Assembly: GCA_965603035.1 (NCBI GenBank)
Contig: CBFDBL010000002.1
Location: forward strand, 1-33,821
Source: an uncultured bacterium
Lineage (GTDB): Bacteria; Planctomycetota; PUPC01; DSUN01
Length of the DNA: 33,821 bases
Direction: 5' to 3'
Below the pieces are notes generated by a model. That model did no database searches and was not told the DNA's origin. It saw only the letters and a list, made by a program, of their open reading frames with translations. This document shows positions 8,001-33,821 of the stretch, in pieces. Every line of letters starts with the position of its first letter. Position 1 is the first letter of the stretch. A program made the translations under genes and the position numbers.

Positions 8001-10095
8001 GCGTGCCGAGGGCCCACGTTTGGGTGGTGGCGATATTGAGGGTCGAGCCGGAGGCTTCGGCAGTGATCGTGACGCCGCTCAGGTCGCCCATGTCGGTCGT
8101 CGCCTCAGACGTCCAGAGATTGGCCTGGGCGGGGTCGGAGGGGTCGACGAAGTCCAGGGAGCCGTAGGCGACACCCGCGCCCTGGCCGAACTTGGCCTCC
8201 ATGCTGGCGTTGACGGCGCCCTCATACCACCCGATGTAGACCTCGTGGGCGCCCGCGCCTAGAGTCACGGTCGCTGTGGCTTCGGTGCGCCCCTGGTAGG
8301 CGTTGTTGTCCACCACGAGCTGGCCGTCCACCCACCACACGCTGCCGTCGTCGCTGGCGGTGCCGAGGGTGATCTCGCCGGGAGCGAGGGGCGAGCCGCC
8401 GACGCCGACGAGCATCGTGCCCGACCACACGGCGCCGAAGTTGTTGGGGTCCTGATTGCGGATGGGAGGATCGGCGGTGCCGCCGGTGCGATCGTACCAA
8501 TCGTCAGGCGTCCCGTTAGCGGGGTCGCCCTGATCGAGGTCGAGGTAGGTGTGCCTGGTCAACGCCGTCATTCGGGCGCTGCCGACACTGTACAAGTCTT
8601 CATAGACCGGCGCCTGGGCGAGGTAGCCCTTGCTCGGCTCGAGGGGGTCGATCAGCGCCTCGCCGTCGCCGGAGTAGTAGGCCTCGAGCAGATCGTTGGC
8701 GGTGCCGCCGGCCGAGACGCCGGGCTCGAGGGTGAGCATGCCGCCGCGCAGGGTCACGTCGGTGGCACCGGCCAGGGGGTTGGCGCCGCGGAGGTAGAGC
8801 TCGCCCTGCTCGACAACGATGTCCGTGAGCGCGAGGTTGCTCAGGCCGGCGCTGTTGTCGCAGCCGAGGGTGCCTGCACCCGTCTTCGTCAGGCTGGCGG
8901 CCCCCGCGTTCACGATGGCGCCGGCGCCCAGGAGGCCGGTGTTGACCTTGACCTCAGTGTCGCCCGCGATGACGAGAGCCGTGACCAGGCCCTGGCCGAC
9001 CTCGAGGCTGGAGCCGTCCTCGAGCACCACGGGCGCGCCCGACAGGAGGTTCGCCGTACCGCCCACCTTGAGCGAGCCGCCAGCCACCGTCACGGCGGCG
9101 CCGCCTGAGGTCTCGAACGTGGTGGCGACCTCCAGGGTCTTGCCGGCGCCGATGACGAGGTTGCCGCCGTTGTGCTCGAGAGCGAGGGCGCCCCGGTCGT
9201 CGGCGACGGTGACGTGGCCGTCATTGATGGCGGCCGCCTCGTTGACCGTCGGGAAGGGGGGCGGCGACGACGCCGAGCAGACCCAGTTCGAGTCGCCCCA
9301 GTTGCCGGTGAACTGGGTGCCGTGGTCCCAGGTGAGCACGGGCGGGAGGGCATCGAGCGGGCTGTTGCCATCGGCGAGGAACTGGATCTGCGTGCCGTCG
9401 AGTGCCTCGTTCCAGATGGCGACGTCGTCGATCCGGCCGTCGAAGCCGCGGTTCTCACTATACCGCGCCTCGTTGTGCCCAATCCAGAGCGCATGCGTCG
9501 GGGTGCCGATGGGGCCGGCGTAACTGGGCTGGTTGGGCTCGGGCTGGCCGTCGGTGGCGTCGATGTAGGTTCGGATCGTGCCGTCGCTCTGGTCCCAGGT
9601 GAACGCGACGTGGTGCCACGCGTCCTGGGTGGGGGCGGGGTTGTCGCTCATGGTCTGGCCGGAATCTTGCAGCTCGACCCGAATGGCGTCGGGGTTGGGG
9701 TTGCGGCACCAGAACATGGAGAAGCCGGGGTCGCTCCATCCGCCGCCTTGGCACACGATGTGGCCGTCGTTCTCCGTGCTGTAGACCCAGGCCGAGACGG
9801 TGACCGCGCTCTGGATGTTCGGCCACGGCGCAGGCTCTGTTGCGGCCAGCCAGGAATCGCCGTCGTAGGAGAACGCTCTGTCGCCGGCGAGGCCAGTGCG
9901 GCCGCCGCCGTCGGCCGTCAGCGTCGCGTTGCCGCTGATCAAGAGGGAGCCAACCAGCGGCTCCACCACGTCCGGGGTGTAGCCGGGGATGCTGTCCACC
10001 ACGTCGGTGTCCATGGGCCAGTAGGCGATCAGGTCGGCCGAGGCCGAGGCGGCGAGCACCAGACCCAGAGCCGCAGCGAACGCCAGCTTCCTCAT
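2032..10095 (-). CDS. Giant secreted PEP-CTERM surface protein (2,687 aa): LamG-type jelly-roll modules, autotransporter-associated beta-strand repeats, PA14-like and F5/8 type C-like modules
   Basis: Track ORF 2032..10167. Start moved to ATG 10095 (GGAGAG 5 nt upstream), which gives the signal peptide MRKLAFAAALGLVLAASASA. Five LamG/concanavalin-type modules end in the typical signature (GRIDDVAIWNEAL; GQIDDVHVYSSVL twice; LDDIYIYDRAL; GDIAELLIFNRAL). Gly/Thr/Ala-rich beta-strand repeat runs are present (e.g. TKTGAGTL, FIKRGSGELVVD, LIKDGPGTMIVD). The C terminus is IPEPTTMALLGLGAVALLRRRRRQA. Confidence 0.93.
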   Translation of the reverse strand: MRKLAFAAALGLVLAASASADLIAYWPMDTDVVDSIPGYTPDVVEPLVGSLLISGNATLTADGGGRTGLAGDRAFSYDGDSWLAATEPAPWPNIQSAVTVSAWVYSTENDGHIVCQGGGWSDPGFSMFWCRNPNPDAIRVELQDSGQTMSDNPAPTQDAWHHVAFTWDQSDGTIRTYIDATDGQPEPNQPSYAGPIGTPTHALWIGHNEARYSENRGFDGRIDDVAIWNEALDGTQIQFLADGNSPLDALPPVLTWDHGTQFTGNWGDSNWVCSASSPPPFPTVNEAAAINDGHVTVADDRGALALEHNGGNLVIGAGKTLEVATTFETSGGAAVTVAGGSLKVGGTANLLSGAPVVLEDGSSLEVGQGLVTALVIAGDTEVKVNTGLLGAGAIVNAGAASLTKTGAGTLGCDNSAGLSNLALTDIVVEQGELYLRGANPLAGATDVTLRGGMLTLEPGVSAGGTANDLLEAYYSGDGEALIDPLEPSKGYLAQAPVYEDLYSVGSARMTALTRHTYLDLDQGDPANGTPDDWYDRTGGTADPPIRNQDPNNFGAVWSGTMLVGVGGSPLAPGEITLGTASDDGSVWWVDGQLVVDNNAYQGRTEATATVTLGAGAHEVYIGWYEGAVNASMEAKFGQGAGVAYGSLDFVDPSDPAQANLWTSEATTDMGDLSGVTITAEASGSTLNIATTQTWALGTLDMTPGSDLTTIGGPVTFGSSTLGNGSTLMAQGTSTGLGAAKVAGSTTLNNTGPLTATTLTLDDGDAISFVGSGPTTIDTLVNAGGTSIVNVPVSAQVTVLDAQDTAAGTVTKQGDGQLTLDTLSAGGATNTTFQVDAGTLLAIGADPLGDSTKLTLAGGTAAFGDGSAPPAPGPTAGLISHWTFDETSGTTAADTQGANAGTISGGVTLGVPGPVGTAFDFDGSSGQVDVGSVGISGAAPRSIAGWFKSDSADPPSDWRGIFGFYDDSSTGDLFFGVDVINNNDAGIHVYNWERPLADLETSSWHHAAATYDGTNIAWYYDGMLVGSEARSGLNTTDYFTMAWRRDNDNRFDGQIDDVHVYSSVLTADDVEAMYGARIAPDTSNINVLVTANSTLESRSTSPLAFADLTVNNDATLTTTGSAMTFASTAIGAASGTLDVQNTVDIGDYGDGGAPKTFIKRGSGELVVDSDAHTIVAADTTWRVEQGTLHAIGADPFDGPTHAELAGGTLTIEPPATPADATYQYFRFTPTKLRDDGAANSVQLSEMQVFYGTLQIPGATATNPGGSTPDAEGPEKAVDNNTGTKWLDFNKAPLVLDFGSAVTIDEYNWATANDATERDPVRWTFEGSNDNANWTLVDSIAGADYPTPTARYTFAGPFTTKIFAGDLDLTDLTVHGTANSTLNIVYPLEATVGQLTLDDGVVLSTMGAPTTFTETVLAGGSGTLDVQNTVDIGDYVGGSGKTLIKDGPGTMIVDNVAHTINGAGTTFEVRQGLLTADAPDPLGGSTDLHLAGGTASFGDTVAPPAPGPTTGLISHWTFDETSGTTAFDTQTANPGTISGGVTLGVPGAIGTAFDFDGNDGQVDVGSVGVSGAAPRSIAGWFKSDSADPPSDWKGIFGFYSASSGGDLFFGIDVINNNDAGIHVYNWERPLADLETSSWHHAAATYDGTNIAWYYDGMLVGSEARSGLNTTDYFTMAWRRDNDNRFDGQIDDVHVYSSVLTADDVETMYGARIAPDTSNINVLVSANSTLESRSASQLDFADLTLNDNTELTVAGGPMSFANAIVNGTAAINSDQHVTLRDYDDGAGANRTLIKRGSGPMDLPDGGPTSGASTTFQVEGGSLNAGGATDPLSGGDLVMAGGTVNLTAPKTAGVIPTGAVGAWTFDAGDADDSSGNGYHGTQNGGAFSSDVPEGLSGQSINLTGNGSINVDDGAGQTVFDLDTLTVAAWVKGWPDNGWDPYISKRGESNQGWQFRRIGWGDSDDKLTMTLRGTSGDDDVIGASNIIQQNPDEWFHIVATYDNATGIRRWYINGVLDGEVLESGDISNTGSQLVFGARDNSGDAGNPPSIGNHSNTWLDDIYIYDRALIEADIQAMLPQRGPLVMPDTNVRVAGGGTLNAVTDKTATFGDLTLQSGALTIAGAREGVFFAGGAVDSSADSIGLDAAVDVTVSGSYDGQNATASFTKSGGANLILTQGTTNHGGVAVDVQGGRLISNAAMQAAGLNIGGGANVDTGTNDVTISDGGAFRAGALKISGAGSTFKVGGDDMAAAPERLGLEGGTVTVRVGAMPGGLAVWLDASDVDGQGNGAIGDPTDGQTVATWADRSGNGNSAAQGNANRQPVYIASAINGQPALRFNADNVEGDDEMKLGDLSAQFPDAATLFAVAYIDSDGRYNVFGNRNNDERWKADTWSEAVPGSFRGGRQGYNFDDLPSDGSHIFAIESNSSVWRMLVDSSNLGDRGADYHSGSGQDWAIADRSNGGQELKGDIAELLIFNRALSATEMGKIGGYLAAKYGIGAAGWTGNIDPMAINMPDTDIHVASSTELFSDTPSTATYGNLNLGGTPGVALTLTGAPGGTFFESIGFDIEGFTPGTEHDQMIFQGPGHPIATGSELDILTPLIFGQDDVCNWAVLMDIEDPLVFADGIFTDARTGLPLPEGASFIDGNGAYFWQISYQYEGNDVAIHLTGIPEPTTMALLGLGAVALLRRRRRQA
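2035..2109 (-). other. PEP-CTERM sorting signal (C-terminal 25 aa of the giant protein)
   Basis: IPEP motif, then the hydrophobic helix TTMALLGLGAVALL, then the basic tail RRRRRQA at the extreme C terminus. This is the canonical PEP-CTERM/exosortase substrate layout. Confidence 0.8.
4871..5640 (-). repeat. Intragenic duplication, copy B (LamG module plus flanks)
   Basis: Aligns with 6770..7539 at a constant offset of 1,899 bp (633 codons, in frame). By eye, 4921-5290 versus 6820-7189 differ at only 3 positions (4932, 4986, 5271). The flanks are clearly more diverged. Confidence 0.9.
6085..6440 (-). other. F5/8 type C (discoidin)-like module inside the giant protein (approximate bounds)
   Basis: Translation YQYFRFTPTKLRDDGAANSVQLSEMQVFYG..KAVDNNTGTKWLDFNKAPLVLDFGSAVTIDEYNWATANDATERDPVRWTFEGSNDNANWTLVDS. 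The pattern A.D....TKW ... R.P..W.(L/F)(E/Q)GS.D...W is typical of discoidin carbohydrate-binding modules. Confidence 0.55.
6770..7539 (-). repeat. Intragenic duplication, copy A (LamG module plus flanks)
   Basis: Partner of 4871..5640. Both encode GLISHWTFDETSGTTA..APRSIAGWFKSDSADPPSDW..DAGIHVYNWERPLADLETSSWHHAAATYDGTNIAWYYDGMLVGSEARSGLNTTDYFTMAWRRDNDNRFDGQIDDVHVYSSVLTADDVE. Confidence 0.9.
8170..8460 (-). other. PA14-like module inside the giant protein (approximate bounds)
   Basis: Translation NFGAVWSGTMLVGVGGSPLAPGEITLGTASDDGSVWWVDGQLVVDNNAYQGRTEATATVTLGAGAHEVYIGWYEGAVNASMEAKFG. It matches the PA14 pattern (F....G.....G.Y.F....DDG..L.(I/V)DG..V(I/V)DN.........L.AG.....I.Y.E..G.A...L.W). 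Confidence 0.5.
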
Positions 10096-10354
10096 CGGGA
10101 CTCTCCTAGAGAAGACAGGATGCTTCGAATCGCGTGATAGGTTCTGCGTCAACGTCACACGGCGCAACGCTCAGGAGAAACGGGAGAGAACAATCCCACT
10201 CCCCATGAGCAGTCTGCTGTAATGCAAATCCCATGCCGCTGGAGCCGCCGTGGTGTACGAGAATCGGAATTGCCGTAAACACAAGCCTCACATAGGCTTA
10301 ACGATACGCCCGCGCTCGGCCCGCGCGCGCCCTTCCTCCGCGATTTCGGACGCC

Positions 10355-10592: not shown

Positions 10593-12107
10593 ATGGACCG
10601 CCCCAATATCCTCATGATCATGGCCGACCAGCTCCCCGCCGCCGCGCTCGGCTGCTACGGGCACGGCGTGGTGCGGAGCCCCCACATCGACCGCCTCGCC
10701 GCCGAGGGCGTCGCCTTCGACCAGTGCCTGTGCAACAGCCCGCTGTGCGCGCCCTCGCGCGCCTCGATGGTCACGGGGCTCCTGCCCTGGCGCACCGGCG
10801 TCTTCGACAACGGCTGCGAGCTGCCCGCCCAGATCCCCACCTTCATGCACCACCTGCGCCGAGCCGGCTACCGCACCCTCCTCTCGGGCAAGATGCACTT
10901 CGTCGGGCCCGACCAGCTCCACGGCTTCGACGAGCGCCTCACCACCGACATCTATCCCTCCTTCTTCCACTGGACCCCCAACTGGCGCAAGGGCGTCTAC
11001 CCCAACCCCGGCACCAGCGTCGCACAGCTCAAGGACGCCGGCCGCTGCCGCTGGAGCCTACAGCTCGACTACGACGAGGAGGTCCACTTCCGCGCCCTCG
11101 AGCGCCTGCGGGCCCTCGCGCGCGACCGCTCCGACCGCCGCCCCTTCCTCCTGTGCGCCTCCTACACCCACCCTCACGACCCGTTCATCATCACCCAGGA
11201 CTACTGGGACCTCTACGACCCCCATGCCGTCGAGCTGCCGGCCGCGCGGCCCCAGCCCATGGCCAGGATGCACGCCTTCAACCGCTGGCTCCAGGTCCAC
11301 CACGAGCTCGATCGCTACCCGCCGTCCGACGAGCTGGTCCGCCGCGCCCGGCGCGCCTACTACGCCATGGTCAGCTACGTGGACGACAAGGTGGGGGAGC
11401 TGGTCGGCGAGGTCCGGCGGCTGGGCCTGGGCGGCAGGACCGTCGTCGTGGTGACCGGCGACCACGGCGAGATGCTCGGCGAGCACGGCATGTGGTTCAA
11501 GCGCACGTTCTACGACGGGTCGGCGCGCGTGCCGCTGGTGTGGTCGTGGCCAGGCCGCTGGCGCGGCGGGCGGCGCGTGGGCGAGGCCGTGTCGCTCGCC
11601 GACCTGTTCCCCACGCTGCTCGACCTGGCCGAGCTGCCCGACCGCGGCAGCGTCGGCCGCGAGGTGGACGGGCAGAGCCTCCTGCCCCTCCTCCGAGGCG
11701 AGACGCCCGGCGCCCCGCGCAGCGCCGTCACCGAGTACTACGGCGAGGGCGTCATCCACCCCCTGCGCATGATCTGCCGCGACAAGTGGAAGTACGTCCA
11801 CGTCCACACACAGCCACCGCTGCTCTTCGACCGCGAGGCCGACCCCACCGAGCAGACCAGCCTCGCAGGCCGCCCCGACGTCGCCGACGTCGAGCACGCC
11901 CTGCGCGACGAGCTGCTCGCAGGCTGGGACCCCGAGGCCATGGAGACCCGCGTCCTCGCCAGCCAGCGCGACCGCAGGCACATCCTCGAGGCCATGGCCC
12001 ACGGCCAGCCCGTCGCGTGGGACCACCAGCCCGTCTTCGACGCCGCCCGCCGCTACGTCCGCGCCCGTGACGCCCAGCACACCAACGGCGAGCGACGACT
12101 CGACTGA
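10593..12107 (+). CDS. betC: Choline-sulfatase-like sulfatase (formylglycine type, Cys)
   Basis: 504 aa; GGAG 5 nt before the ATG. The N terminus RPNILMIMADQL, the sulfatase signature SPLCAPSRASMVTG (C-x-P-x-R) and the block LLSGKMHFVGPDQLHGFDERLTTDIYP are what I recall as diagnostic of the BetC choline-sulfatase family. Also TGDHGEMLGEHGMWFK. The symbol comes from motif memory only. Confidence 0.88.
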   Translation: MDRPNILMIMADQLPAAALGCYGHGVVRSPHIDRLAAEGVAFDQCLCNSPLCAPSRASMVTGLLPWRTGVFDNGCELPAQIPTFMHHLRRAGYRTLLSGKMHFVGPDQLHGFDERLTTDIYPSFFHWTPNWRKGVYPNPGTSVAQLKDAGRCRWSLQLDYDEEVHFRALERLRALARDRSDRRPFLLCASYTHPHDPFIITQDYWDLYDPHAVELPAARPQPMARMHAFNRWLQVHHELDRYPPSDELVRRARRAYYAMVSYVDDKVGELVGEVRRLGLGGRTVVVVTGDHGEMLGEHGMWFKRTFYDGSARVPLVWSWPGRWRGGRRVGEAVSLADLFPTLLDLAELPDRGSVGREVDGQSLLPLLRGETPGAPRSAVTEYYGEGVIHPLRMICRDKWKYVHVHTQPPLLFDREADPTEQTSLAGRPDVADVEHALRDELLAGWDPEAMETRVLASQRDRRHILEAMAHGQPVAWDHQPVFDAARRYVRARDAQHTNGERRLD

Positions 12108-19691: not shown

Positions 19692-20384
19692 ATGGACGCC
19701 AGGCTCGATGGATGGGCGATGCTGGCCCTTGCTGCCGCGATGGCCTGCGTTGCACTGGGCGCCTCTGCGGCAGAGAAGGCGCCGGACCCGAAGCGCCAGA
19801 CCGTCGTAGAGGGTGAGGTCCCCATCCAGGCGGACCGTTTCGAGCGGGACCCCGAGACCAGGCGGCTCGTCGGCGAGGGACACGTCCTCGCCGTCTGGGA
19901 CAGGCAGCGGGTGGAATGCGAGAGGATGGAGTGGCTGCCGCCCGAGAAGCCCGAGGGAAGCGGGCGTTTCATCTACGAGGGCAACGTCCGCATCACGATC
20001 AAGCCCAAGGAACCGAAGCGCGCCAAGCCAGGACGGAAGAAGCCCAAGGGATGGCGCGGGACGTGTGGAACAGCGGAGTACGATCCGGCCACCGACCGAA
20101 TCGAGATGAAGAAGGGCAAGGCACCCCAGCGCCCGAGGCTCTGGCGCGGCAAGACCTACGGCGAAGCCGACACGATCGTCTTCATCCCGGGACAGGGTGC
20201 ATTCGAGCTCATAGGCGCTCCCACCGTCCACGGAGGCACAATGTGGGGCCTCGCGGGCGTTGGTCCGTCGCTCATCAAGGCACTCGAAGAGAAGGCCAAA
20301 GAGCAACTCAGGCGGCCACGCGACGGGCCGAAGCCTTCCACAGAGGACGCCACGGAGCCGCCGCGCCAGCCGCCCCAACCCTGA
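19692..20384 (+). CDS. Secreted protein with OstA/LptA-like N-terminal region and Lys/Pro-rich segments
   Basis: In frame with track ORF 19638..20384. Start at ATG 19692 (GGAGGG 7 nt upstream). Signal peptide WAMLALAAAMACVALGASAAE. IQADRFERDPETRRLVGEGHVLAVWDRQRVECERMEW and CGTAEYDPATDRIEMKKG..GEADTIVF resemble the repeated A.....D......G.V pattern of OstA-like domains. The functional call is weak. Confidence 0.65.
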   Translation: MDARLDGWAMLALAAAMACVALGASAAEKAPDPKRQTVVEGEVPIQADRFERDPETRRLVGEGHVLAVWDRQRVECERMEWLPPEKPEGSGRFIYEGNVRITIKPKEPKRAKPGRKKPKGWRGTCGTAEYDPATDRIEMKKGKAPQRPRLWRGKTYGEADTIVFIPGQGAFELIGAPTVHGGTMWGLAGVGPSLIKALEEKAKEQLRRPRDGPKPSTEDATEPPRQPPQP

Positions 20385-20473
20385 TCCTGTGGCTTCCCAG
20401 CGGTTCTCTCCGTCCCACGCGGTGGCTTGGGGGAGGGCGGGAACTGCTCAGGGGCCATCAGCCGTCCTTCCCG

Positions 20474-21844
20474 TTGTCGGGGGCGAGCGACATCAGGCCA
20501 GATGATCTCAGGTCCGAGAACCTCCGCGGCGCGCCCGTCGGTGTGCTCGTCTGTGCGAGCGTCCACCACAACGGCCATGTCCGCGAGGCGGCCGTGCGGG
20601 AGCTGGCGCGGGTGGACACCGGGGAGGAGTTGCCGTCGCTCCTGGCTCGGCGCAACGACTGGGTGCCGGAGGTCCGTGCCGCAGCGGCCGAGGCCCTCGA
20701 CCAGCGGCTGCGGCCCGACTACGCACGCCATTTCCTCGACTGCGTCCCCGACGTGCTTCGGCTTCGGGGCTGCCGGCGGGACGATCACAGCGCCTTCGTC
20801 GAGCGCGTGCGCTCGTTGCTGAGGCGGGCGGAGTGCCGCTCGGAGCTGGTCGCGGCGCTCACAGCGGGGGAGGCTCTCGTCCAGCGCGAATGCGTGCGCC
20901 TGCTGCTGGAGATCGATGCGCTGCCGCCCGAACGGCTGGCGAAGCTGGTGCTCGAGCCGAGCGACCCCCTGGCCCGTGCCGCGGGCGTGCGCGAGGCCTG
21001 CGCGCGGCTCGGCGACGGGGAGCTGGGGGCCTGGCTGCTGCGCTTGCTCGGCGACCGGTTCGTGCGCGTGCGGCGGGAGGCGCTTGATGCAGGGGCATCC
21101 AGGGCCATTCCAGCGTCCGAGGCAGCTCTGGAGGACGCCCTGCTGGACCCGCACCGGACGCTTCGCGCCGTCGCCCAGTACCACTTGCGTCGGCGGGGCA
21201 TGACCCGCGAGGAGATCGCCGAGCGGTGCCGCGCTGCCCTGCGCGCCAACCAGCCGAGGCAGTGGGTCGGCGCGCTGGAAGAGCTCGGGCACCTCGGGTC
21301 GAGCGACGATTGCGACCTCATCCGCGGCTTCCTGAGCCACGACCGCTCGAGGGTGCAGCGGGCGGCTCTCCGCGCTCTCTGGCGCCTGGCGCCCGAGGCC
21401 CACGCCAACCTCGTGCAGCGACGCCTCGGCGACGAGCAGCCCGGGGTGGCCAAAGAGGCGAGCTGGTGTCTCGCCGAGAGGCCGGGGCTGCTCGACCCCG
21501 AATGGCTGATCGAGCTCTTCGGGCGCTCGCAGGAGCGGCGCACGCGGCTCATCGTCGTGAGCCTGCTGGGCGAGCTCAGGAAGTGGGACAGCCTTCTCCA
21601 CCTTCTCCGCGCCATCGACCTGGCCGCCGAGGACGAGCGGCCAGACGTGCAGGCGCCCCTCGAGCAGTGGATGGCCTGCGCCAACCGCTCCTTCGTCCCA
21701 CCGACCCCGGCACAAAGATCTACGATCCGCTGCCTGCTGAACGCCCTGGCGGCCCGCGGCGACTCGGAACTCGCCGGGAGGCTGCGCTTCCACCTGCCTG
21801 CTCCGCCGCCCGCAGACGCCCGCCGGGCGCAATCCGGGCCCTGA
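20474..21844 (+). CDS. HEAT-repeat protein
   Basis: 3' part of track ORF 19916..21844; the upstream part overlaps the OstA-like gene out of frame. It is Leu/Ala/Arg/Glu-rich, with recurring helical-hairpin units of the type H.N..VR.AAV.ELARV, D.VPEVRAAAAEALD, D.F.RVRREALDA and HDRSRVQRAALRAL. No in-frame ATG lies near the 5' end. TTG 20474 was chosen, GTG 20543 is an alternative, and neither has a clear SD. Confidence 0.6.
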   Translation: MSGASDIRPDDLRSENLRGAPVGVLVCASVHHNGHVREAAVRELARVDTGEELPSLLARRNDWVPEVRAAAAEALDQRLRPDYARHFLDCVPDVLRLRGCRRDDHSAFVERVRSLLRRAECRSELVAALTAGEALVQRECVRLLLEIDALPPERLAKLVLEPSDPLARAAGVREACARLGDGELGAWLLRLLGDRFVRVRREALDAGASRAIPASEAALEDALLDPHRTLRAVAQYHLRRRGMTREEIAERCRAALRANQPRQWVGALEELGHLGSSDDCDLIRGFLSHDRSRVQRAALRALWRLAPEAHANLVQRRLGDEQPGVAKEASWCLAERPGLLDPEWLIELFGRSQERRTRLIVVSLLGELRKWDSLLHLLRAIDLAAEDERPDVQAPLEQWMACANRSFVPPTPAQRSTIRCLLNALAARGDSELAGRLRFHLPAPPPADARRAQSGP

Positions 21845-22157
21845 GGGCACGCTCCTGAGCTTTCGGGACGGTGCTGCGCCTGCCTGCCGGCCGCGCCGCG
21901 CGCGGGTGAGGCGTCCGCGACCGGGCAAGTGTCCCTGTACACAGCTTGCCCGTAGAGCCCCGTATACGCCCCGTAGAGCGACGTTTGCGCCGAAGGTATC
22001 CTGGGTCGCGCAATGCCTCCGGCACGCCTAGGATTGGATTCTGGCGTGTCTGGTTTTTCGGACTTGTAAGCATATATGTTCCAAAGGCTTACGGAGGGCC
22101 CGATCGTCCGTCCGGAGCCCGGATCGACGTAAGTCAAGGTTCTCGATCCACGGCGCA

Positions 22158-22178: not shown

Positions 22179-22609
22179 CAGCCCCCGGCGCGACGCGACC
22201 GGAGCCCTCGATCGCTGCGGTGGGCGCTCAGGCCACTTGGGGTGGAATTGCAGTAACCGTTCAGGTGGTCAGGCCAGGAGGGCGTGTTGCCCAAAGGAGA
22301 CCTGCGGCCCGAACGGCCACGCAAGGTGCTCTTCCTGCTGGAAGAGGCGGGCGATTCCGTCGAGTTTCTGCCCATCCGTGAGATCATGGCCCCCAACTGG
22401 CGTTTGGGCAACACGCCCGGGAGCGCCACCGAGCCGAGCGCCCGCCGCCGTCTCGCGTCACGCCATTTGCGGCAGGGGCAACTGCCGGGGGGCTGCATGC
22501 ACAGCCCCTCGCTGCGAGGGGGAGCCGCAGAATGGCTTGCCCCTCGCGTCGGCGGGCTGGGCGCACACCCTCCGTCGCAGGGAAGAACAGGGCTGGCGCG
22601 CTATCATGT

Positions 22610-22623
22610 CATTTGCGCAAATG
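22610..22623. promoter_or_regulatory. 14-bp perfect palindrome CATTTGCGCAAATG, copy 1
   Basis: The sequence equals its own reverse complement and is AT-rich relative to its surroundings. It sits at the same position in every repeat unit. Confidence 0.5.
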
Positions 22624-22774
22624 CCCAAACCACCGCGAGGGGCGCCGCGCCGCTCTGCCGCCGACCCGGGCAGCGTGGCATGGCTTGCTGGGGCCTCGCG
22701 GCTCGGCACGATGGGGGCGGCGTCCGGCAGACACCTGGCGCCTGGCGAGCCCATGCGGGAGCGCGCTATCATGC

Positions 22775-22788
22775 CATTTGCGCAAATG
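22775..22788. promoter_or_regulatory. 14-bp perfect palindrome CATTTGCGCAAATG, copy 2
   Basis: Identical to copy 1, 165 bp downstream. Confidence 0.5.
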
Positions 22789-22939
22789 CAGGAATACCCG
22801 CGAGGGGCGCCGCGCCACTTTGCCGCCGACTCGGGCGGCGCGGCACAGCTTGCTGTGGCCTCGCGTCTCGGCACGACGGCGGTGGCGTCCCGGCAACACC
22901 TGGCGTCTGGGGAGCCCATGTGGCGGCGCGGTATCATGT

Positions 22940-22953
22940 CATTTGCGCAAATG
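22940..22953. promoter_or_regulatory. 14-bp perfect palindrome CATTTGCGCAAATG, copy 3
   Basis: Identical to copy 1, 330 bp downstream. Confidence 0.5.
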
Positions 22954-23104
22954 CGACGATAACCGCGAGCCGCGCCGCGCCACTTTGCCGCCGACCCGGG
23001 CAGCGTGGCATGGCCTGCTGGGGCCTCCCGGCTGGCCACGAAGGGAGCAGCGCCCTGGAGAGAGCCGGCGTGGGGCGAGTCCGTGTGGCGCTGGGTTATC
23101 ATGC

Positions 23105-23118
23105 CATTTGCGCAAATG
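23105..23118. promoter_or_regulatory. 14-bp perfect palindrome CATTTGCGCAAATG, copy 4
   Basis: Identical to copy 1, 495 bp downstream. It lies about 100 bp upstream of the TTGACA at 23214. Confidence 0.5.
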
Positions 23119-23213
23119 CGGAGCTCACCGCGAGTGGCGCTGCTCCCCCTCGCTGCCGCCCCAGGACTCCCTTCTGTATCGCACGCCCGACTCAGCAGCG
23201 CGGCGATCTGCGC

Positions 23214-23245
23214 TTGACACCCATCCTCTATTCCGCATGTATGGT
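23214..23245 (+). promoter_or_regulatory. Weak candidate promoter of the second sulfatase gene
   Basis: TTGACA at 23214-23219. The best -10 options are TGTATG (23238-23243, 18-nt spacer) or TATGGT (23240-23245, 20-nt spacer, too long). It is listed only because of the perfect -35 hexamer and its position 72 nt before the start codon. Confidence 0.25.
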
Positions 23246-23290
23246 CTGTCGCTTGCTGCTTCATGTCGCCGCCGGAGAGGAGTCCCAGTC

Positions 23291-24652
23291 GTGGCTCGAC
23301 CGAACATCCTGATCTTCATGACCGACCACCAGCGCGGCGATACGGTGCGGCCCGAGCACCCGTGCAAGACGCCCCACATCGATGCCTTCGCCCGCGAGGG
23401 CGTCCTCTTCGACCAGGTCTTCTGCCCCGCGCCCCACTGCTGCCCCGCACGCGGCACCTTCCACAGCGGCCTCTACCCGACCCGCAGCGGGGTGTGGAAC
23501 AACATCTGCAACGACCAGGCCCTCACCCGCGGTCTCAAGCCCGGCGTCCGCCTGTGGAGCGAGGGCCTCGCCGAGGTGGGCTATCGCATGGCCTGGACGG
23601 GCAAGTGGCACGTGAGCGTCGAGGAAGGGCCCCAGGACCGCGGCTGGCAGCAGGTGCTCCGCGTCAGCGCCCACAAGGCCCGCGAGCACCACACGGCCTG
23701 GGAGCAGTACGAGAAGCTCGCCCAGCGCGCCGCCGACGCCGAGCGCGGCGAGGGCCAGATCCTCCGGCCCGGCTACGGCACCTATACCATGTACGGCACC
23801 CGCCCCGACCACGGCAAGCACCACGACGAGCTGGTGACCCAGGACGCCGTCGAGACTCTGCCCGAGCTGGCGAAGGGCGACGACCCCTGGTGCATGTTCG
23901 TCGGCGCCGTCGCGCCCCACGACCCCTACGTCGTGCCCCAGCGCTTCCGCGACCTCTACGACCTCGACGACGTGCCCCTGCCGCCCAGTTACGCCGACGA
24001 CCTCGCCGACAAGCCGCGCATCTACCAGCGCATGCGGCGGCAGGTGTGGGGCCAGCTCTCCGAGCGCGAGATCCGCGAGGGCATCCGCCACTTTTGGGCA
24101 TACTGCTCCTGGCTCGACGACCTCTTCGGCCAGATCCTCGCCGCGCTCGACGCCACGGGCCAGGCCGACGACACCCTCGTGCTCTACTGCTCGGACCACG
24201 GCGACTACTGCGGCGACCACGGGCTCTTCGCCAAGGGCATCCCCTGCTTCCAGGGCGCCTACCACGTGCCCGCCGTCCTGCGGTGGCCCAACGGGATCGC
24301 CAACCCGGGCCGGCGCGTCGGCGAGCTCGTGAGCCACGCCGACTGGGCGCCCACGTTCCTCGAGCTCGCGGGCGTCGAGCCGCGGCAGCGCTTCACCGGC
24401 GCCAGCCTCGTCCCCTTCCTCCGCGACGAGACGCCCGCCGACTGGCGCGACGCCATCTTCACCCAGTGCAACGGCGTCGAGCTCTACTACACCCAGCGGT
24501 CGGTCATGACGAAGGACTTCAAGTACGTCTTCAACGGCTTCGATGACGACGAGCTCTACGACCTGCGCGCCGACCCCCACGAGATGCACAACCTCGCCGC
24601 CGACCCCGCCTACGAGGCCGTCAAGCTCGCGCTCGTCCGCCGCCTCCGATGA
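23291..24652 (+). CDS. Sulfatase (formylglycine type, Cys); possibly 3'-truncated by a frameshift
   Basis: 3' part of track ORF 22532..24652. Start at GTG 23291 (GGAGAGGAG 8 nt upstream), giving (M)ARPNILIFMTDHQRGD. Sulfatase signature PHCCPARGTFHSG (C-x-P-x-R). Also CSDHGDYCGDHGLFAKG and DELYDLRADPHEMHNLA. The track N-terminal extension is translation of the noncoding repeat array. See the finding on the out-of-frame coding-like tail at 24649-24777. Confidence 0.86.
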   Translation: MARPNILIFMTDHQRGDTVRPEHPCKTPHIDAFAREGVLFDQVFCPAPHCCPARGTFHSGLYPTRSGVWNNICNDQALTRGLKPGVRLWSEGLAEVGYRMAWTGKWHVSVEEGPQDRGWQQVLRVSAHKAREHHTAWEQYEKLAQRAADAERGEGQILRPGYGTYTMYGTRPDHGKHHDELVTQDAVETLPELAKGDDPWCMFVGAVAPHDPYVVPQRFRDLYDLDDVPLPPSYADDLADKPRIYQRMRRQVWGQLSEREIREGIRHFWAYCSWLDDLFGQILAALDATGQADDTLVLYCSDHGDYCGDHGLFAKGIPCFQGAYHVPAVLRWPNGIANPGRRVGELVSHADWAPTFLELAGVEPRQRFTGASLVPFLRDETPADWRDAIFTQCNGVELYYTQRSVMTKDFKYVFNGFDDDELYDLRADPHEMHNLAADPAYEAVKLALVRRLR

Positions 24653-24777
24653 CGCCAGCCGCATCATCTCCTCGCGCCTGGAAGTTCGCCCACCGTGAAA
24701 GCGACGGCGCCATCAACGGCTACATCACCGTCGCCCTCGCCCCCCGCGGCCCCGCCGAGGCCTTTCGCGAGGACTGA
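24649..24777 (+). CDS. Coding-like 42-codon ORF that overlaps the sulfatase stop (ATGA); either a displaced sulfatase C terminus or a coupled small ORF
   Basis: ATG 24649-24651 overlaps TGA 24650-24652. The translation is MTPAASSPRAWKFAHRESDGAINGYITVALAPRGPAEAFRED. From the TGG at 24679 onward, third codon positions are almost all G/C, which is coding-like. Confidence 0.3.
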   Translation: MTPAASSPRAWKFAHRESDGAINGYITVALAPRGPAEAFRED

Positions 24778-31136: not shown

Positions 31137-32510
31137 TCATCGGCTGTCGTGGACACCGGCACACACCCTGTCGAGTCGGGCCTGGAGGTCGGCGGCGACG
31201 TCGGGCTGGCGGCCGAGCACGTCGTCCTGCTCGCAGAGGTCGCGGTCGAGCGCGAAGAGGCGGGGCGGCTGTGGGCTCTTGGCCCAGCGGGTGTCGGCCA
31301 GCTCGCGATAGGGCGCGATGTAGTTGTGGGTGCGGGTGCGGAGGCTGGCGTAGGGGCCGTAGGCGCTGACGAGGTGGGGGTAGCCCTTGCGCTTGCGGAG
31401 TGCGACGGGCACCAGGTCCTGGCCGTCCATGTGCTGCGGCCCCTCCTTGTGGTCGAGGAGCACCAGGACGGTGGGTGCGACGTCGATGGCGGAGACGTAG
31501 TCGTGGACGCGGACGCCGGCGAGCTCGTCGTAGGGCAGGCGCAGGATGAGCGGCAGGCGGGTCTCGGGCTGGACGAGTGCCCAGGGCTGCTTGTGGAAGA
31601 GGCCCATCTCGCCGAGCAGTGTGCCGTGGTCGGAGGTGAAGAGCACGGCGGTCTCGTCGGCGAGTCCGAGGTCGGCCAGGCGGTCGAGCAGGCGGCCCAC
31701 CCAGCGGTCCACCAGGGAGACTTCGCCCGCGTAGAGTGCGCGGATGCGGGCCGCCTCGGCCTCGGAGAAGCTGCCCGCGTCCGTGGCCGGCGCGAAGATC
31801 AGGCGGGGATGGTGCGGCGCGTCGGCGTAGGCAGCGGCATCGCGCAGCGGCGGGTCCCACGGCTCGTGCGGGTCGAAGCAGTCGACCCACAGGAAGAAGG
31901 GGCGGTTCCCCGCGTTGTCCTCGAGCCACCGCATGGCCGCCGTCATCACGCGGGGGGCGAGGTAGTCCTCCTCGCGCCGCCGCCAGGCATTGTTGAGCAG
32001 GTACTGGCGCTGGCCGGGCGGCAGGCTCGAGAGCTCGAAGTCGCCCGCCGCCTCGCCCGCCCAGGCCGCGCCGGCCAGGGCCTCGCGCGGGCCCGAGCGC
32101 CAGCGGTCGGCCTCCTGGCCGCGGACGAACTCCCAGGCGTCGAAGCCCCGGTGGTAGTTGCCCGAGGGCTTGAAGTAGTGGTAGAGGTCGGTGACGAGGC
32201 CGCACGTCACCCCCGCGTCGGCCAGCAGCTCGGCGACGGTGGGCTCGTCGTCGGGGATGGCGTGCCAGGCCGGCTGGAAGCTCAGCCGGTCGCCCTTGTG
32301 CTCGTGGACCTCCCAGCGGGGGAACAGGCGCCGCCCGGTGAAGAAGATGCGGCGAGCGGGCAGGGTCGGCAGGCCCTCGGCGTAGCACTGCTCGAACACG
32401 ATGCCGTCGTGGGCGAGCGCGTCGAGGCGTGGGGTGCGGATCCAGTCGTTGCCGTAGCAGCCGAGATGGTCGGCGCGGAAGGTGTCGGCGCAGACGGCCA
32501 GGACGTTCAT
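31137..32510 (-). CDS. Sulfatase-fold (alkaline-phosphatase superfamily) hydrolase with Thr at the formylglycine position
   Basis: Track ORF 31137..32792. Start moved to ATG 32510 (AAGGGAG 8 nt upstream), giving MNVLAVCADTFRADHLGCYG..TPRLDALAHDGIVFEQCYAEGLPTLPARRIFFTG. The T-L-P-A-R sits exactly where the other two sulfatases have C-x-P-x-R, 9 residues after the conserved Phe in all three. Also TSDHGTLLGEMGLFHK. 457 aa. Confidence 0.85.
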   Translation of the reverse strand: MNVLAVCADTFRADHLGCYGNDWIRTPRLDALAHDGIVFEQCYAEGLPTLPARRIFFTGRRLFPRWEVHEHKGDRLSFQPAWHAIPDDEPTVAELLADAGVTCGLVTDLYHYFKPSGNYHRGFDAWEFVRGQEADRWRSGPREALAGAAWAGEAAGDFELSSLPPGQRQYLLNNAWRRREEDYLAPRVMTAAMRWLEDNAGNRPFFLWVDCFDPHEPWDPPLRDAAAYADAPHHPRLIFAPATDAGSFSEAEAARIRALYAGEVSLVDRWVGRLLDRLADLGLADETAVLFTSDHGTLLGEMGLFHKQPWALVQPETRLPLILRLPYDELAGVRVHDYVSAIDVAPTVLVLLDHKEGPQHMDGQDLVPVALRKRKGYPHLVSAYGPYASLRTRTHNYIAPYRELADTRWAKSPQPPRLFALDRDLCEQDDVLGRQPDVAADLQARLDRVCAGVHDSR

Positions 32511-32547
32511 GCGGCGCACTCCCTTGCTCGCGGATCGGGCAGCCGCC

Positions 32548-32576
32548 ACTATAGGGCTGTCGGCGGCACGGCGCAA
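32548..32576 (-). promoter_or_regulatory. Candidate promoter of the Thr-type sulfatase-fold gene
   Basis: On the - strand: TTGCGC (32576-32571), a 17-nt spacer, then TATAGT (32553-32548), about 38 nt upstream of ATG 32510. Confidence 0.4.
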
Positions 32577-32598
32577 CCGGCTCGCCGTGCGCGAGCGG

Positions 32599-32626
32599 TT
32601 GACACGGCGGCGCCGGCACGTATGAT
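32599..32626 (+). promoter_or_regulatory. Candidate promoter of the TrkA-N membrane protein gene
   Basis: TTGACA (32599-32604), a 16-nt spacer, then TATGAT (32621-32626), 56 nt before ATG 32683. It is divergent from the promoter above. Confidence 0.45.
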
Positions 32627-32682
32627 GCACGGGGCTGGGCGCGCGCCGACGCGCGGCCCGGGCCGTGAGGGAAGGAGCGAAC

Positions 32683-33821
32683 ATGCCACAGGGGACGCGC
32701 GAGCGCCCAGGCGAGCGGCGCGTGGGGCTGCTCGCCGTGCTCTGGAGCTGGCTGGTGCTGGGCGGGCTGTCGAACGCGCGGTGGGTGGTCATCGGCGTGC
32801 TGTGGGTGGCGGCCCTGCTGCTGGGCTTCTGGGGGTTCGCTGGCTACCTGGCCGCGACGGGCCGGGAGGCGACGGGCCTCCACACCCTCTACCTGGCGCT
32901 CCAGCTCTTCACGCTGGAGTCGGGGTCGGTGGCGGTGCCTGCGGCGGTGGGCTGGCAGCTCGAGGTCGCGCGGCTCATGGCACCCGGCGTGATGGCCTAC
33001 ACGGTGGTGCAGGCGTTGGCGGTGATCTTCGCCCAGCAGTTCGCGACGCTGCGCCTGCTGACGCTGCGCGACCACGTCGTGGTGTGCGGGCTGGGCCGCA
33101 CGGGCCTCGCGCTGGTCAAGAGCTTCCGCGAGCAGGGCTACCCGGTCGTGGTGATCGAGAGCGACGAGGGGAACGACGCGATCGAGCAGTGTCGCGACCT
33201 GGGCGCGACGGTGCTGCTGGGTGACGCGACGGAGGGCGCGCTGCTCCGCAAGGCGCGGGTGCCGCAGGCGCGCTACCTGATGGCGGTGTGCGACGACGGG
33301 CCGAACGCCGAGGTGGCGGCCTACGCCGAGGAGATGGTGCGGGACCGCGAGGAGGGCACGCTGACCTGCTTCGCCCACATCGTGGACCTCGAGCTGTGCG
33401 GGCTGCTGCGCGAGCGCGAGCTGTCGCGCCGCCACGCCGACGCGTTCCGCCTCGAGTTCTTCAACGTCTTCGAGAGCGGCGCCCGGGCGCTCCTGGCCGC
33501 CTACCCGCCCTTCGGCCCCGCCGACCCCTGCGAGCCGCACCTGCTGGTCGTCGGGCTCGGGCGCATGGGGCAGACCCTCGTGGCCCGCGCCGCCCGCGAC
33601 TGGAGCGCCCTCGACCGCGCCGACGGCCGGCCCCTCCACATCACGGCCATCGACCAGCACGTCGGCAGTTGCGTCGAGGCCATGGTCCTGCGCCACCCCC
33701 AGCTCGAGCGCTGGTGCCGGCTCGACGCCCTCGAGATGAGCACCCAGTCGCCGGCGTTCCACCGCGGCGACTTCCTGTTCGACGACCAGGGCCGCTGCGA
33801 CGTGACCATCGCCTACATCTG
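32683..33821 (+). CDS. Membrane protein with tandem TrkA-N / RCK-type NAD-binding domains (3' end outside the window)
   Basis: Not in the ORF track because it has no stop inside the window. ATG 32683 is preceded by AAGGAG with a 5-nt spacer. My translation is MPQGTRERPGERRVGLLAVLWSWLVLGG..VVIGVLWVAALLLGFWGFAGYL..LMAPGVMAYTVVQALAVIF (membrane helices), then HVVVCGLGRTGLALVKSFREQGYPVVVIESD (Rossmann GxGxxG) and a second HLLVVGLGRMGQTLV. Third codon positions are G/C-rich throughout. Confidence 0.8.
   Translation, partial: MPQGTRERPGERRVGLLAVLWSWLVLGGLSNARWVVIGVLWVAALLLGFWGFAGYLAATGREATGLHTLYLALQLFTLESGSVAVPAAVGWQLEVARLMAPGVMAYTVVQALAVIFAQQFATLRLLTLRDHVVVCGLGRTGLALVKSFREQGYPVVVIESDEGNDAIEQCRDLGATVLLGDATEGALLRKARVPQARYLMAVCDDGPNAEVAAYAEEMVRDREEGTLTCFAHIVDLELCGLLRERELSRRHADAFRLEFFNVFESGARALLAAYPPFGPADPCEPHLLVVGLGRMGQTLVARAARDWSALDRADGRPLHITAIDQHVGSCVEAMVLRHPQLERWCRLDALEMSTQSPAFHRGDFLFDDQGRCDVTIAYI

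Follow-up and report, generated by a model that had tools for sequence, protein, structure and literature searches.

The stretch analyzed here (the window) is 33,821 nucleotides of DNA with a G+C content of ≈71% from an uncultured Planctomycetota bacterium, and it contains a tandem array of 165-bp units, each headed by a palindrome, directly upstream of a sulfatase gene. The array lies in a non-coding gap of 1.45 kb between a HEAT-repeat gene (19916-21844, plus strand; Pfam HEAT_2, 5e-16) and the sulfatase gene (23291-24652, plus strand, GTG start at 23291; PF00884, 8e-40; SGSH_C, 2e-25). Tandem Repeats Finder (TRF) returned it as the sole long-period array in the window (22596-23140; period 165, 3.3 copies, 79% matches, 2% indels, score 662). 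The palindrome CATTTGCGCAAATG is present in exactly four exact copies in the window, at 22610, 22775, 22940, and 23105, compared to none expected from 100 shuffles, and allowing two mismatches added no further copies in the window. Likewise, its core 8-mer TTGCGCAA occurs in the window at the same four places only (0.28 expected). The palindrome is part of a 23-nt head, TATCATG(T/C)CATTTGCGCAAATGC, that starts at 22602, 22767, 22932, and 23097, with the variable position reading T, C, T, and C in order, and the four-head stretch keeps a strict 165-bp period from 22602 to 23163. A preliminary description of this DNA had reported the array, the head positions, and the T/C alternation, all of which we recovered.

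All units are on the plus strand. Unit 1 (22602-22766; nhmmer, 1.7e-48) has its 30-bp head at 22602-22631 and its perfect palindrome at 22610-22623. Unit 2 (22767-22931; head 22767-22796, palindrome 22775-22788) and unit 3 (22932-23096; head 22932-22961, palindrome 22940-22953) are followed by a terminal partial unit (23097-23163; head 23097-23126, palindrome 23105-23118), which has ≈40 nt in common with the other units and matches positions 1-69 of the unit profile. A direct-repeat family search also placed a decayed outermost unit, u0, at 22437-22601, whose half-lost head (TCACGCCATTTGCG, followed by GCAGGGG; 22458-22471) is 146 bp upstream of head 1 and corresponds to the degenerate fifth unit noted previously; u0 aligns poorly with the other units and was missed by the profile search at E<1. 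Units 1 and 2 are 82% identical, units 1 and 3 are 79% identical, and units 2 and 3 are 76% identical. These values do not support the 330-bp higher-order repeat suggested in the preliminary description, and TRF reported no 330-bp period. The segment in which units 1 and 3 agree, taken earlier as a hint of such a repeat, is ancestral, being shared with units of relatives, and the derived changes are those of unit 2. Comparison loci from related genomes and metagenome contigs are designated here by L-numbers (L001, L002, and so on). Two of these, L035 and L036, are independent metagenome assemblies of the window's organism and carry the identical four-head array, so the array is not an assembly artifact; L035 differs from the window by one single-nucleotide polymorphism (SNP) and one indel.

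A conserved leader (23164-23290, plus strand) separates the array from the sulfatase gene. It contains TTGACA (23214-23219), as marked in the preliminary description, TATGGT (23240-23245), and the ribosome-binding site (RBS) GGAGAGGAG (23274-23282), and the last palindrome of the array ends 95 bp before TTGACA. The leader is 88-90% identical in L007 and L037, two loci with orthologous sulfatase genes. A sigma-54 promoter with an enhancer-binding site was considered, given that TGGTCT-N5-TTGCT (23242-23257) has the correct GG-N10-GC spacing and is kept in L007 and L037; this reading was dropped because L038 lacks the motif, as does every other head locus. A likeness of the leader to DNA past the last head of L026 was seen by eye only and was not recovered by blastn at E≤1.

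The full head is a 30-bp site, TAT-CATGC-CATTTGC|GCAAATG-N5-ATA, with the core TTTGCGCAAA. The consensus of 24 non-redundant sites is tATCATGCC-ATTTGCGCAAAT-G(c/g)(c/g)G(a)nAT(a)(a)CC. A 12-mer core is invariant over these sites, the left arm ATCATGCC is nearly so, even where its complement is lacking, and the right arm is looser, usually ending in ATA. In the window heads, the left arm is complete and seven or eight of the 12 right-arm positions are retained. A minority of heads are perfect 30-bp palindromes (TATCATGCCATTTGC|GCAAATGGCATGATA), and the symmetric heads (L002, L003-4054, and L046-10399) form a 12-2-12 inverted repeat, TCATGCCATTTG-CG-CAAATGGCATGA.

Conservation is concentrated in the head. 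The sequence CATTTGCGCAAATGC is invariant in 10 of 10 units from three genomes, and the unit bodies are 70-82% alike within and between genomes. The longest invariant run in the sulfatase arrays is the head (15 columns, P ≈2e-3), and the longest invariant run in a set of unrelated arrays beside folP, described below, is the same sequence (13 columns); outside the head, 47-55% of columns are invariant in both 164-bp arrays. Therefore, the heads are under purifying selection and the bodies largely are not, in agreement with the earlier proposal of a constrained head and drifting bodies. The folding energies of the window heads as single-stranded DNA are -2.2 to -4.1 kcal/mol (z, -0.6 to +1.0), no better than those of shuffles, and the only well-folding heads are the rare symmetric variants (-8.3 and -11.6 kcal/mol; 12- to 13-bp stem). 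Because the window heads do not fold single-stranded, no RNA structure was found in the units (see below), and the site has a 12-2-12 palindrome format, the heads behave like sites recognized as duplex DNA by a dimeric protein, which is how the preliminary description had interpreted the palindrome.

The array is non-coding, as had been claimed. The three codon positions have GC fractions of 0.75/0.72/0.68 in the array compared to 0.70/0.45/0.96 in the sulfatase gene, substitutions between units are spread evenly over the codon positions, and the palindrome is found in both orientations. By contrast, the argument that a TAA interrupts the only consistent frame was misleading: two other plus-strand frames happen by chance to be open through the array, as open reading frames (ORFs) at 22284-23312 and 22532-24652. 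Automatic gene calling placed a 341-aa ORF over the whole array, overlapping the sulfatase start (1139-2164 in L035, equivalent to 22284-23312 in the window); judged by codon-position GC, this ORF is spurious. A mini-ORF that reads ATG-CCA-TTT-GCG-CAA-ATG-xxx-xxx-stop (MPFAQM and two further residues) is present in about half of the heads (e.g., L007 2476-2500 and window 22937-22962). The candidate peptide, MPFAQM(R/T)K, was rejected, in that it is encoded by only this half of the heads, lacks an RBS, and has every "synonymous" position invariant, as expected of a by-product of the palindrome; the mini-ORF looks like a palindrome coincidence rather than translation. A CRISPR-like reading of the array was likewise disfavored by the tests run.

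The preliminary description had also raised a family of small structured RNAs, a reading in which each unit would be a small RNA (sRNA) gene or structured RNA and the head would be its promoter or 5' element. Tandem sRNA arrays have precedents, such as NsiR1, and both the regular, unit-sized architecture and the conserved head beside TATCAT, a -10-like hexamer, in the window would fit this idea. Nevertheless, we consider it very unlikely. An Rfam search gave no match at gathering thresholds and noise only at E≤10 (best match, ALIL, 12.5 bits versus a gathering score of 50). Minimum free energy (MFE) was compared to dinucleotide shuffles for both strands of units from the sulfatase array and from the second array, and 13 of the 14 folds were less stable than their shuffles (z, +0.9 to +2.1), with W_u2 on the minus strand at -0.2. 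RNAalifold of six diverged units returned a penalizing covariation term of +2.67, with two of 43 pairs compensatory and many broken, and unit bodies are unrelated between loci. A role of TATCAT as the -10 box of unit transcripts was rejected: the hexamer is GGTCAT or GATCAT in L037, no -35 accompanies it, and a promoter and terminator scan found no canonical sigma-70 promoter pair and no intrinsic terminator.

The number of heads in front of the orthologous sulfatase genes varies among close relatives. There are four heads (and the decayed fifth) with a 165-bp period in the window organism, two heads 160 bp apart in the metagenome-assembled genome (MAG) locus L007, and at least four heads in L037 (165/164/164 bp), where the contig starts inside a head. 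L007 and L037 are 94% identical in the sulfatase coding sequence (CDS) and 95.5% identical in the leader, but identity between the one full unit of L007 and any unit of L037 is only ≈75%. This mismatch between unit identity and CDS or leader identity implies that whole units were gained and lost in register. The L007 unit is 81% identical to window unit 3, with which it is probably orthologous, the terminal partial unit of the window is the ortholog of the last head in L007 and L037, and units 2 and 3 of L037 are 99% identical. No heads were found at sulfatase orthologs L038-L040 (76-81% amino-acid identity), where divergence of the upstream DNA is too great for the limits of an insertion to be drawn.

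The convergent genes folP and SpoIIE have a second head array between their 3' ends, with three heads in L008 (1371-1746; 163/164 bp) and four heads in L041 (1320-1845; 165/164/164 bp). Homology between the bodies of the sulfatase and folP arrays was rejected. With the heads trimmed, global alignment in the same orientation gave z = -0.28 and a lag scan had no peak at 0, and the profiles cross-match only over the head ±20 nt; comparison with the reverse complement gave z 3.7. These two arrays with unrelated bodies nevertheless have a 163- to 165-bp period in common, with almost no indels. Other periods are 129 bp in L046 (three copies, units 97% identical), ≈280 bp in L001, and ≈270-300 bp in L006/L026, and head pairs are 498 or 499 bp apart at the regulator-gene loci described below (L003, L045, L044, and L046-L053). 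The earlier suggestion that the heads sit on the same face of the DNA is not supported by these values, in that 165 bp corresponds to 15.7 turns at 10.5 bp per turn and the other arrays use 129, ≈280, ≈300, and 498 bp. Heads are nearly always inside locus-specific tandem duplications, and the region beside the regulator gene contains one unit or three 129-bp units, depending on the locus. The arrays thus have the head-to-tail repeats and copy-number differences among close relatives that characterize minisatellites. Downstream of folP in a more distant planctomycete, L043 contains an unrelated 136-bp tandem array (1492-1833; 2.5 copies, 98% identical) with hairpin-like GTGGCACGGGC...GCCCGTGAC motifs, and tandem arrays between genes may be frequent in this group.

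An exact scan of 185,579 species-representative genomes for the 21-mer ATCATGNCATTTGCGCAAATG matched one Planctomycetota MAG (CAZDNN01), on six contigs, and two other matches were chance coding matches. A metagenome scan added four more contigs of the same lineage. The head was found at ≈7 loci in at least four related genomes of this narrow Planctomycetota lineage, and ≈15 heads were found in the fragmented MAG CAZDNN01. The palindrome is therefore not confined to one locus, as the preliminary description had supposed a neutral minisatellite would be. Copy number does vary among close relatives (2, 4, and at least 4 heads). All real heads are intergenic, and profile searches showed that only ≈45 nt around the head are common between head loci. 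The head is not restricted to the sulfatase promoter to which the array was linked earlier, and heads also sit beyond gene 3' ends, such as one in L002 that is 62 nt after a stop codon, and between convergent genes. In L006 and L037, contigs break at heads. Viral contigs contained no head matches, BLAST of the 30-mer against plasmids and phages gave only E≥2, and a literature search for TTTGCGCAAA returned primers and unrelated sequences only; we found no description of the head or of such arrays in the literature and databases searched. Matches in ≈22 Acidobacteria metagenome contigs were rejected as unrelated chance matches in a transposase-like gene encoding IMAFAQM, identified by reading the translated flanks, as were matches in L005 and L004, which encode IM(A/S)FAQM (in a panD-like gene, also by reading translated flanks).

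Among the head loci, an ArsR-family gene with heads on both sides stood out as encoding a candidate binding protein. In L003, the 498-bp interval between two heads holds a single gene (4122-4463) that encodes a 113-aa winged-helix protein of the ArsR/SmtB family (Pfam HTH_5, 7.7e-9; NCBIfam ArsR/SmtB, 4.7e-14). This protein (MTAKELGWLLRAFGDGTRVRLLAALSEGEQSVGDLVRTAGRAWATVSRHLQYLDRRGIVQWRTVRGSVRYRLAKPHDAVRKQMLAAFLAVLSNVEDIPARSTPSSARRRKPTH; P0392 is the variant from the window's sample) has no cysteines and no recognizable metal site, and its closest PDB relatives are BigR, CmtR, SmtB, and HlyU (E, 1e-5 to 1e-4). The heads around the gene are ≈90-100 nt before the start codon and 56 nt after the stop codon, and the same bracket is present in L045 (99% identical protein), in L044 (81%, different sample), and in L046-L053. 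In the non-coding alignment of L044 and L045, the head and a TTGAC-N18-TA(A/G)GCT promoter 14 nt after it are conserved, and the rest is diverged. The conserved promoter that adjoins the upstream head of the regulator gene reads TTGACG-N17-TAAGCT. The protein forms two clusters among 5.8 billion proteins, and among 1.84 billion representatives its own cluster was the sole match at E<1e-30, with the next relative 48% identical. By these database searches, the regulator shares the head's restriction to this clade.

There is no ArsR-family regulator gene of this kind within the window itself. The two samples that yielded L035 and L036 also yielded the regulator-gene loci L046 and L048, and the coverage ratios of the L046-type and L035-type contigs match (6.55/5.95 and 4.55/4.17); for this reason, the window's genome very probably encodes the 113-aa protein. 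The head bracket around the regulator gene is thus present in three lineages, one of which is probably that of the window's organism. The regulator gene of L046 is transcribed divergently from an operon for a Cys/Met-pyridoxal phosphate (PLP) enzyme, a DUF4838 protein, a GH20 protein, and a sulfatase. The regulator gene is followed by five heads, one degenerate and three at the 129-bp period, which precede an operon for a 461-aa protein with no assigned function and another sulfatase. At the far end of the divergent sulfatase operon in L046, a second, different ArsR-family gene (163-579; 138 aa) is located beside ferredoxin and thioredoxin genes. In L044, the RBS and first ≈6 codons of the ArsR-like gene (158-191) are duplicated ≈148 nt upstream (10-43), just before the upstream head, as a trace left by a further duplication or deletion that took place at a head.

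We favor the interpretation, at a probability of roughly 0.5, that the sulfatase array is a set of tandem operators, maintained by selection and remodeled through unequal exchange. By sequence and gene context, the head is most likely the operator of a predicted, autoregulated ArsR-like regulator. ArsR/SmtB proteins bind 12-2-12 inverted repeats located upstream of, or inside, their target genes (PMC8790569). In the lineage of the window, the head would be bound as double-stranded DNA by a dimeric winged-helix regulator, and the candidate reader is the 113-aa ArsR/SmtB-family protein, which is clade specific, contains no cysteine, and is encoded by a gene that itself has this site on either side. 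An ancestral single operator, located ≈100 bp upstream of the sulfatase promoter, may have been copied by tandem duplication together with ≈135 bp of flanking DNA, after which unequal exchange in register with the heads would add and remove whole units, while selection would keep each head intact and let the bodies drift. The resulting array, placed ≈100-600 bp upstream of the sulfatase promoter region, would present four (formerly five) operators in register and could thereby increase local occupancy by the regulator and allow cooperative or looped binding before the sulfatase gene. We infer from these data that the candidate protein binds the head and controls the sulfatase gene, and this regulation could be negative, through looping, or positive, through HlyU-like activation or anti-silencing from upstream positions.

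This interpretation draws on the likeness of the heads to the 12-2-12 operators of SmtB, ZiaR, AztR, AzuR, and CzrA, which are also AT-rich, 26- to 30-bp inverted repeats. The heads have the 12-2-12 format (about 26-30 bp), although this is a weak indication, in that any even palindrome fits it. Moreover, heads are located next to and around an ArsR-family gene (L003, L045, L044, and L046-L053), an arrangement that suggests autoregulation. ArsR/SmtB control regions likewise contain repeats, one or two in number (more here), and the family is known for cooperative binding (PMC8790569). On the other hand, the heads are amplified into tandem arrays of two to five copies with periods of 129-498 bp. 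Unlike those operators, heads also occur after gene 3' ends, the candidate protein lacks a cysteine or recognizable metal site, and the half-site CATTTG is unrelated to TGAA/TTCA.

Several observations weigh against a simple operator function. The usual place of ArsR-type repressor sites is the core promoter, and the heads do not overlap a -35/-10 pair or a transcription start site (TSS): relative to the inferred TSSs of L046, head centers are at about -55.5 for the regulator gene and about -81.5 for the 461-aa gene. Nor are these two centers and that of the last window head, ≈100 bp upstream of the sulfatase TTGACA, in helical phase. Heads occur where no promoter is expected, including the three or four heads between convergent folP and SpoIIE and the L002 head that follows a stop codon, so that some heads have terminator-like or convergent locations, and the genes that adjoin heads are functionally mixed. 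The sulfatase connection could be due to chance, and the link of heads to sulfatases is statistically weak because sulfatases are so abundant in these genomes; the window alone contains three in 34 kb, each confirmed by Pfam (10593-12104, 23291-24652, and 31137-32792), a density that is typical of Planctomycetota. In addition, a simple homodimer does not account for the conserved left/right asymmetry that most heads show.

Some of these same observations would fit a model in which the heads bind this or another protein as architectural or titration sites, so that the arrays serve as nucleation, decoy, or chromosome-organization centers without control of the adjacent gene, as do datA for DnaA, sopC/parS centromeres, and Noc and SlmA sites. 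The arrays in non-promoter places, such as that between folP and SpoIIE, the mixed functions of neighboring genes, the conserved multiplicity itself, and the 163- to 165-bp period held with almost no indels by two arrays with unrelated bodies are all consistent with this model. There is also a resemblance to F sopC (12 × 43 bp, each with a SopB-bound inverted repeat) and to datA-type clusters, which likewise have fixed-period units, each led by a short inverted repeat (here, a predicted dimer site), with a conserved motif, a drifting spacer, and variable copy number. However, the period of the head arrays is three to four times longer than that of sopC, and the heads are at several chromosomal loci with different periods; the spacings of 129, ≈280, ≈300, and 498 bp imply that there is no universal spacing. 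Heads are strictly intergenic, unlike matS, SlmA-binding (SBS), or Noc-binding (NBS) sites, and no par or segregation genes are present in any comparison locus; in particular, partition genes (ParA/ParB, ParM/ParR, or TubZ/TubR) are absent among the genes that flank every head locus. We regard an architectural or titration role as rather unlikely.

Alternatively, the head could be the site of a transposase or site-specific recombinase, either REP/RAYT-like (repetitive extragenic palindromic elements and their associated tyrosine transposases) or dif-like, with an 11-6-11 layout (ATCATGCCATT-TGCGCA-AATGGCATGAT), and the enzyme would disperse the heads and generate or resolve the units. A selfish or recombinogenic element of this sort would account for the clade-specific spread, the intergenic and often gene-downstream location of heads, the contig breaks at heads (L006 and L037), the presence of heads almost always in tandem duplications of local DNA, and the fast turnover of whole units, exemplified by L007 and L037 (two versus at least four heads at 94% CDS identity), and one conserved arm with one degenerate arm is also a property of Xer sites. 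The heads share with REP elements and bacterial interspersed mosaic elements (BIMEs) that they are short, palindromic, strictly extragenic, lineage-specific, clustered, and often downstream of or between convergent genes. REP elements are defined by GTAG or CGTC tags (PMC3733652) and are mobilized by RAYTs. Yet GTAG or CTAC was found in 0 of the 24 heads, and CGTC or GACG was found in eight of 24 at inconsistent positions. Most heads, including those in the window, cannot form the stable stem-loop that RAYTs recognize, the head core is AT-rich rather than GC-rich, and the arrays consist of local DNA duplicated in direct tandem orientation, not of repeats in alternating orientations. Neither a transposase, RAYTs included, nor a recombinase gene was found in the high-GC Planctomycetota comparison loci, and the copy number appears to be low (≈15 heads found in the fragmented MAG). 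Furthermore, orthologous heads are held in place across species, which implies selection at the level of the host. On balance, a selfish origin seems unlikely. That the array is a neutral minisatellite, in which chance or gene conversion would account for the apparent conservation of the head, is more improbable still. Copy number varies among relatives, the outermost unit is decayed, and some duplicates are recent (units 2 and 3 of L037, 99%; the 129-bp units of L046, 97%), as in MIRU-VNTR loci (mycobacterial interspersed repetitive units with variable numbers of tandem repeats) and other non-coding prokaryotic satellites, which are also intergenic tandem repeats with copy-number polymorphism in close relatives. 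Dispersed non-coding satellite families are reported to be rare in prokaryotes (PMC6749651). In contrast to such satellites, only the 30- to 45-bp head is common to the loci and the rest of the unit is locus-specific, which implies that the satellite did not transpose as a whole. Moreover, the same 12-15 nt are invariant in old units whose remaining sequence differs by 18-30%, in two unrelated arrays, and in single-copy sites of several genomes, and a 30-bp tract is presumably too short for efficient ectopic conversion.

If the ArsR-like protein does bind the head, the window and its relatives would provide a clear natural case in which the operator of a bacterial regulator has multiplied, at several loci, into fast-evolving arrays of variable number, some of them before sulfatase genes. 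Sulfatases are the hallmark enzymes with which planctomycetes degrade sulfated glycans, and to our knowledge, essentially nothing is established about their regulation. The heads and the 113-aa protein would be a testable protein-site pair for an uncultured lineage, with which it could be asked whether operator copy number tunes expression or titrates the regulator and whether the bound palindrome itself promotes tandem duplication. An extension that we think unlikely is an "operator satellite," in which sites for a clade-specific winged-helix protein were repeatedly amplified with local DNA into variable-number arrays, with a spacing of ≈164 bp in at least two unrelated arrays, and would build higher-order, possibly DNA-wrapping nucleoprotein structures that act as regulator reservoirs or chromatin-like domains rather than as simple promoters. 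If true, which is again unlikely, this would be a previously undescribed kind of element. At a practical level, heads are points at which assemblies break, and gene callers turn the array into the spurious 341-aa ORF.

Other observations concern the sulfatase gene and its surroundings. The window has a 32-bp insertion, CCGATGACGCCAGCCGCATCATCTCCTCGCGC, at 24646-24677 that is lacking in L035 and L036, whose only other difference from the window is one SNP at 21722. The insertion shifts the reading frame, such that the sulfatase ends in VRRLR at 453 aa compared to 484 aa in all homologs; an intact 484-aa sulfatase, as in L035 and L036, would end at 24777. This 32-mer is present once in the window and in none of the comparison loci, and it could be a strain variant, a pseudogene mutation, or an assembly error. 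A perfect inverted repeat of 16 bp, GGGCGTGTTGCCCAAA ... TTTGGGCAACACGCCC (22280-22295 and 22403-22418), lies shortly before the array on its upstream side and encloses ≈107 nt, and its arms extend to 31 nt with 77% complementarity; it was not found in relatives, whose upstream DNA differs. The same long gap also contains a 21-bp tandem duplication, CCCGTAGAGCCCCGTATACGC, in two copies (21949-21991), and the first 500 bp of the gap upstream of the sulfatase gene have a lower G+C content (0.65). Elsewhere in the window, a 2,711-aa ORF is on the minus strand at 2032-10167.

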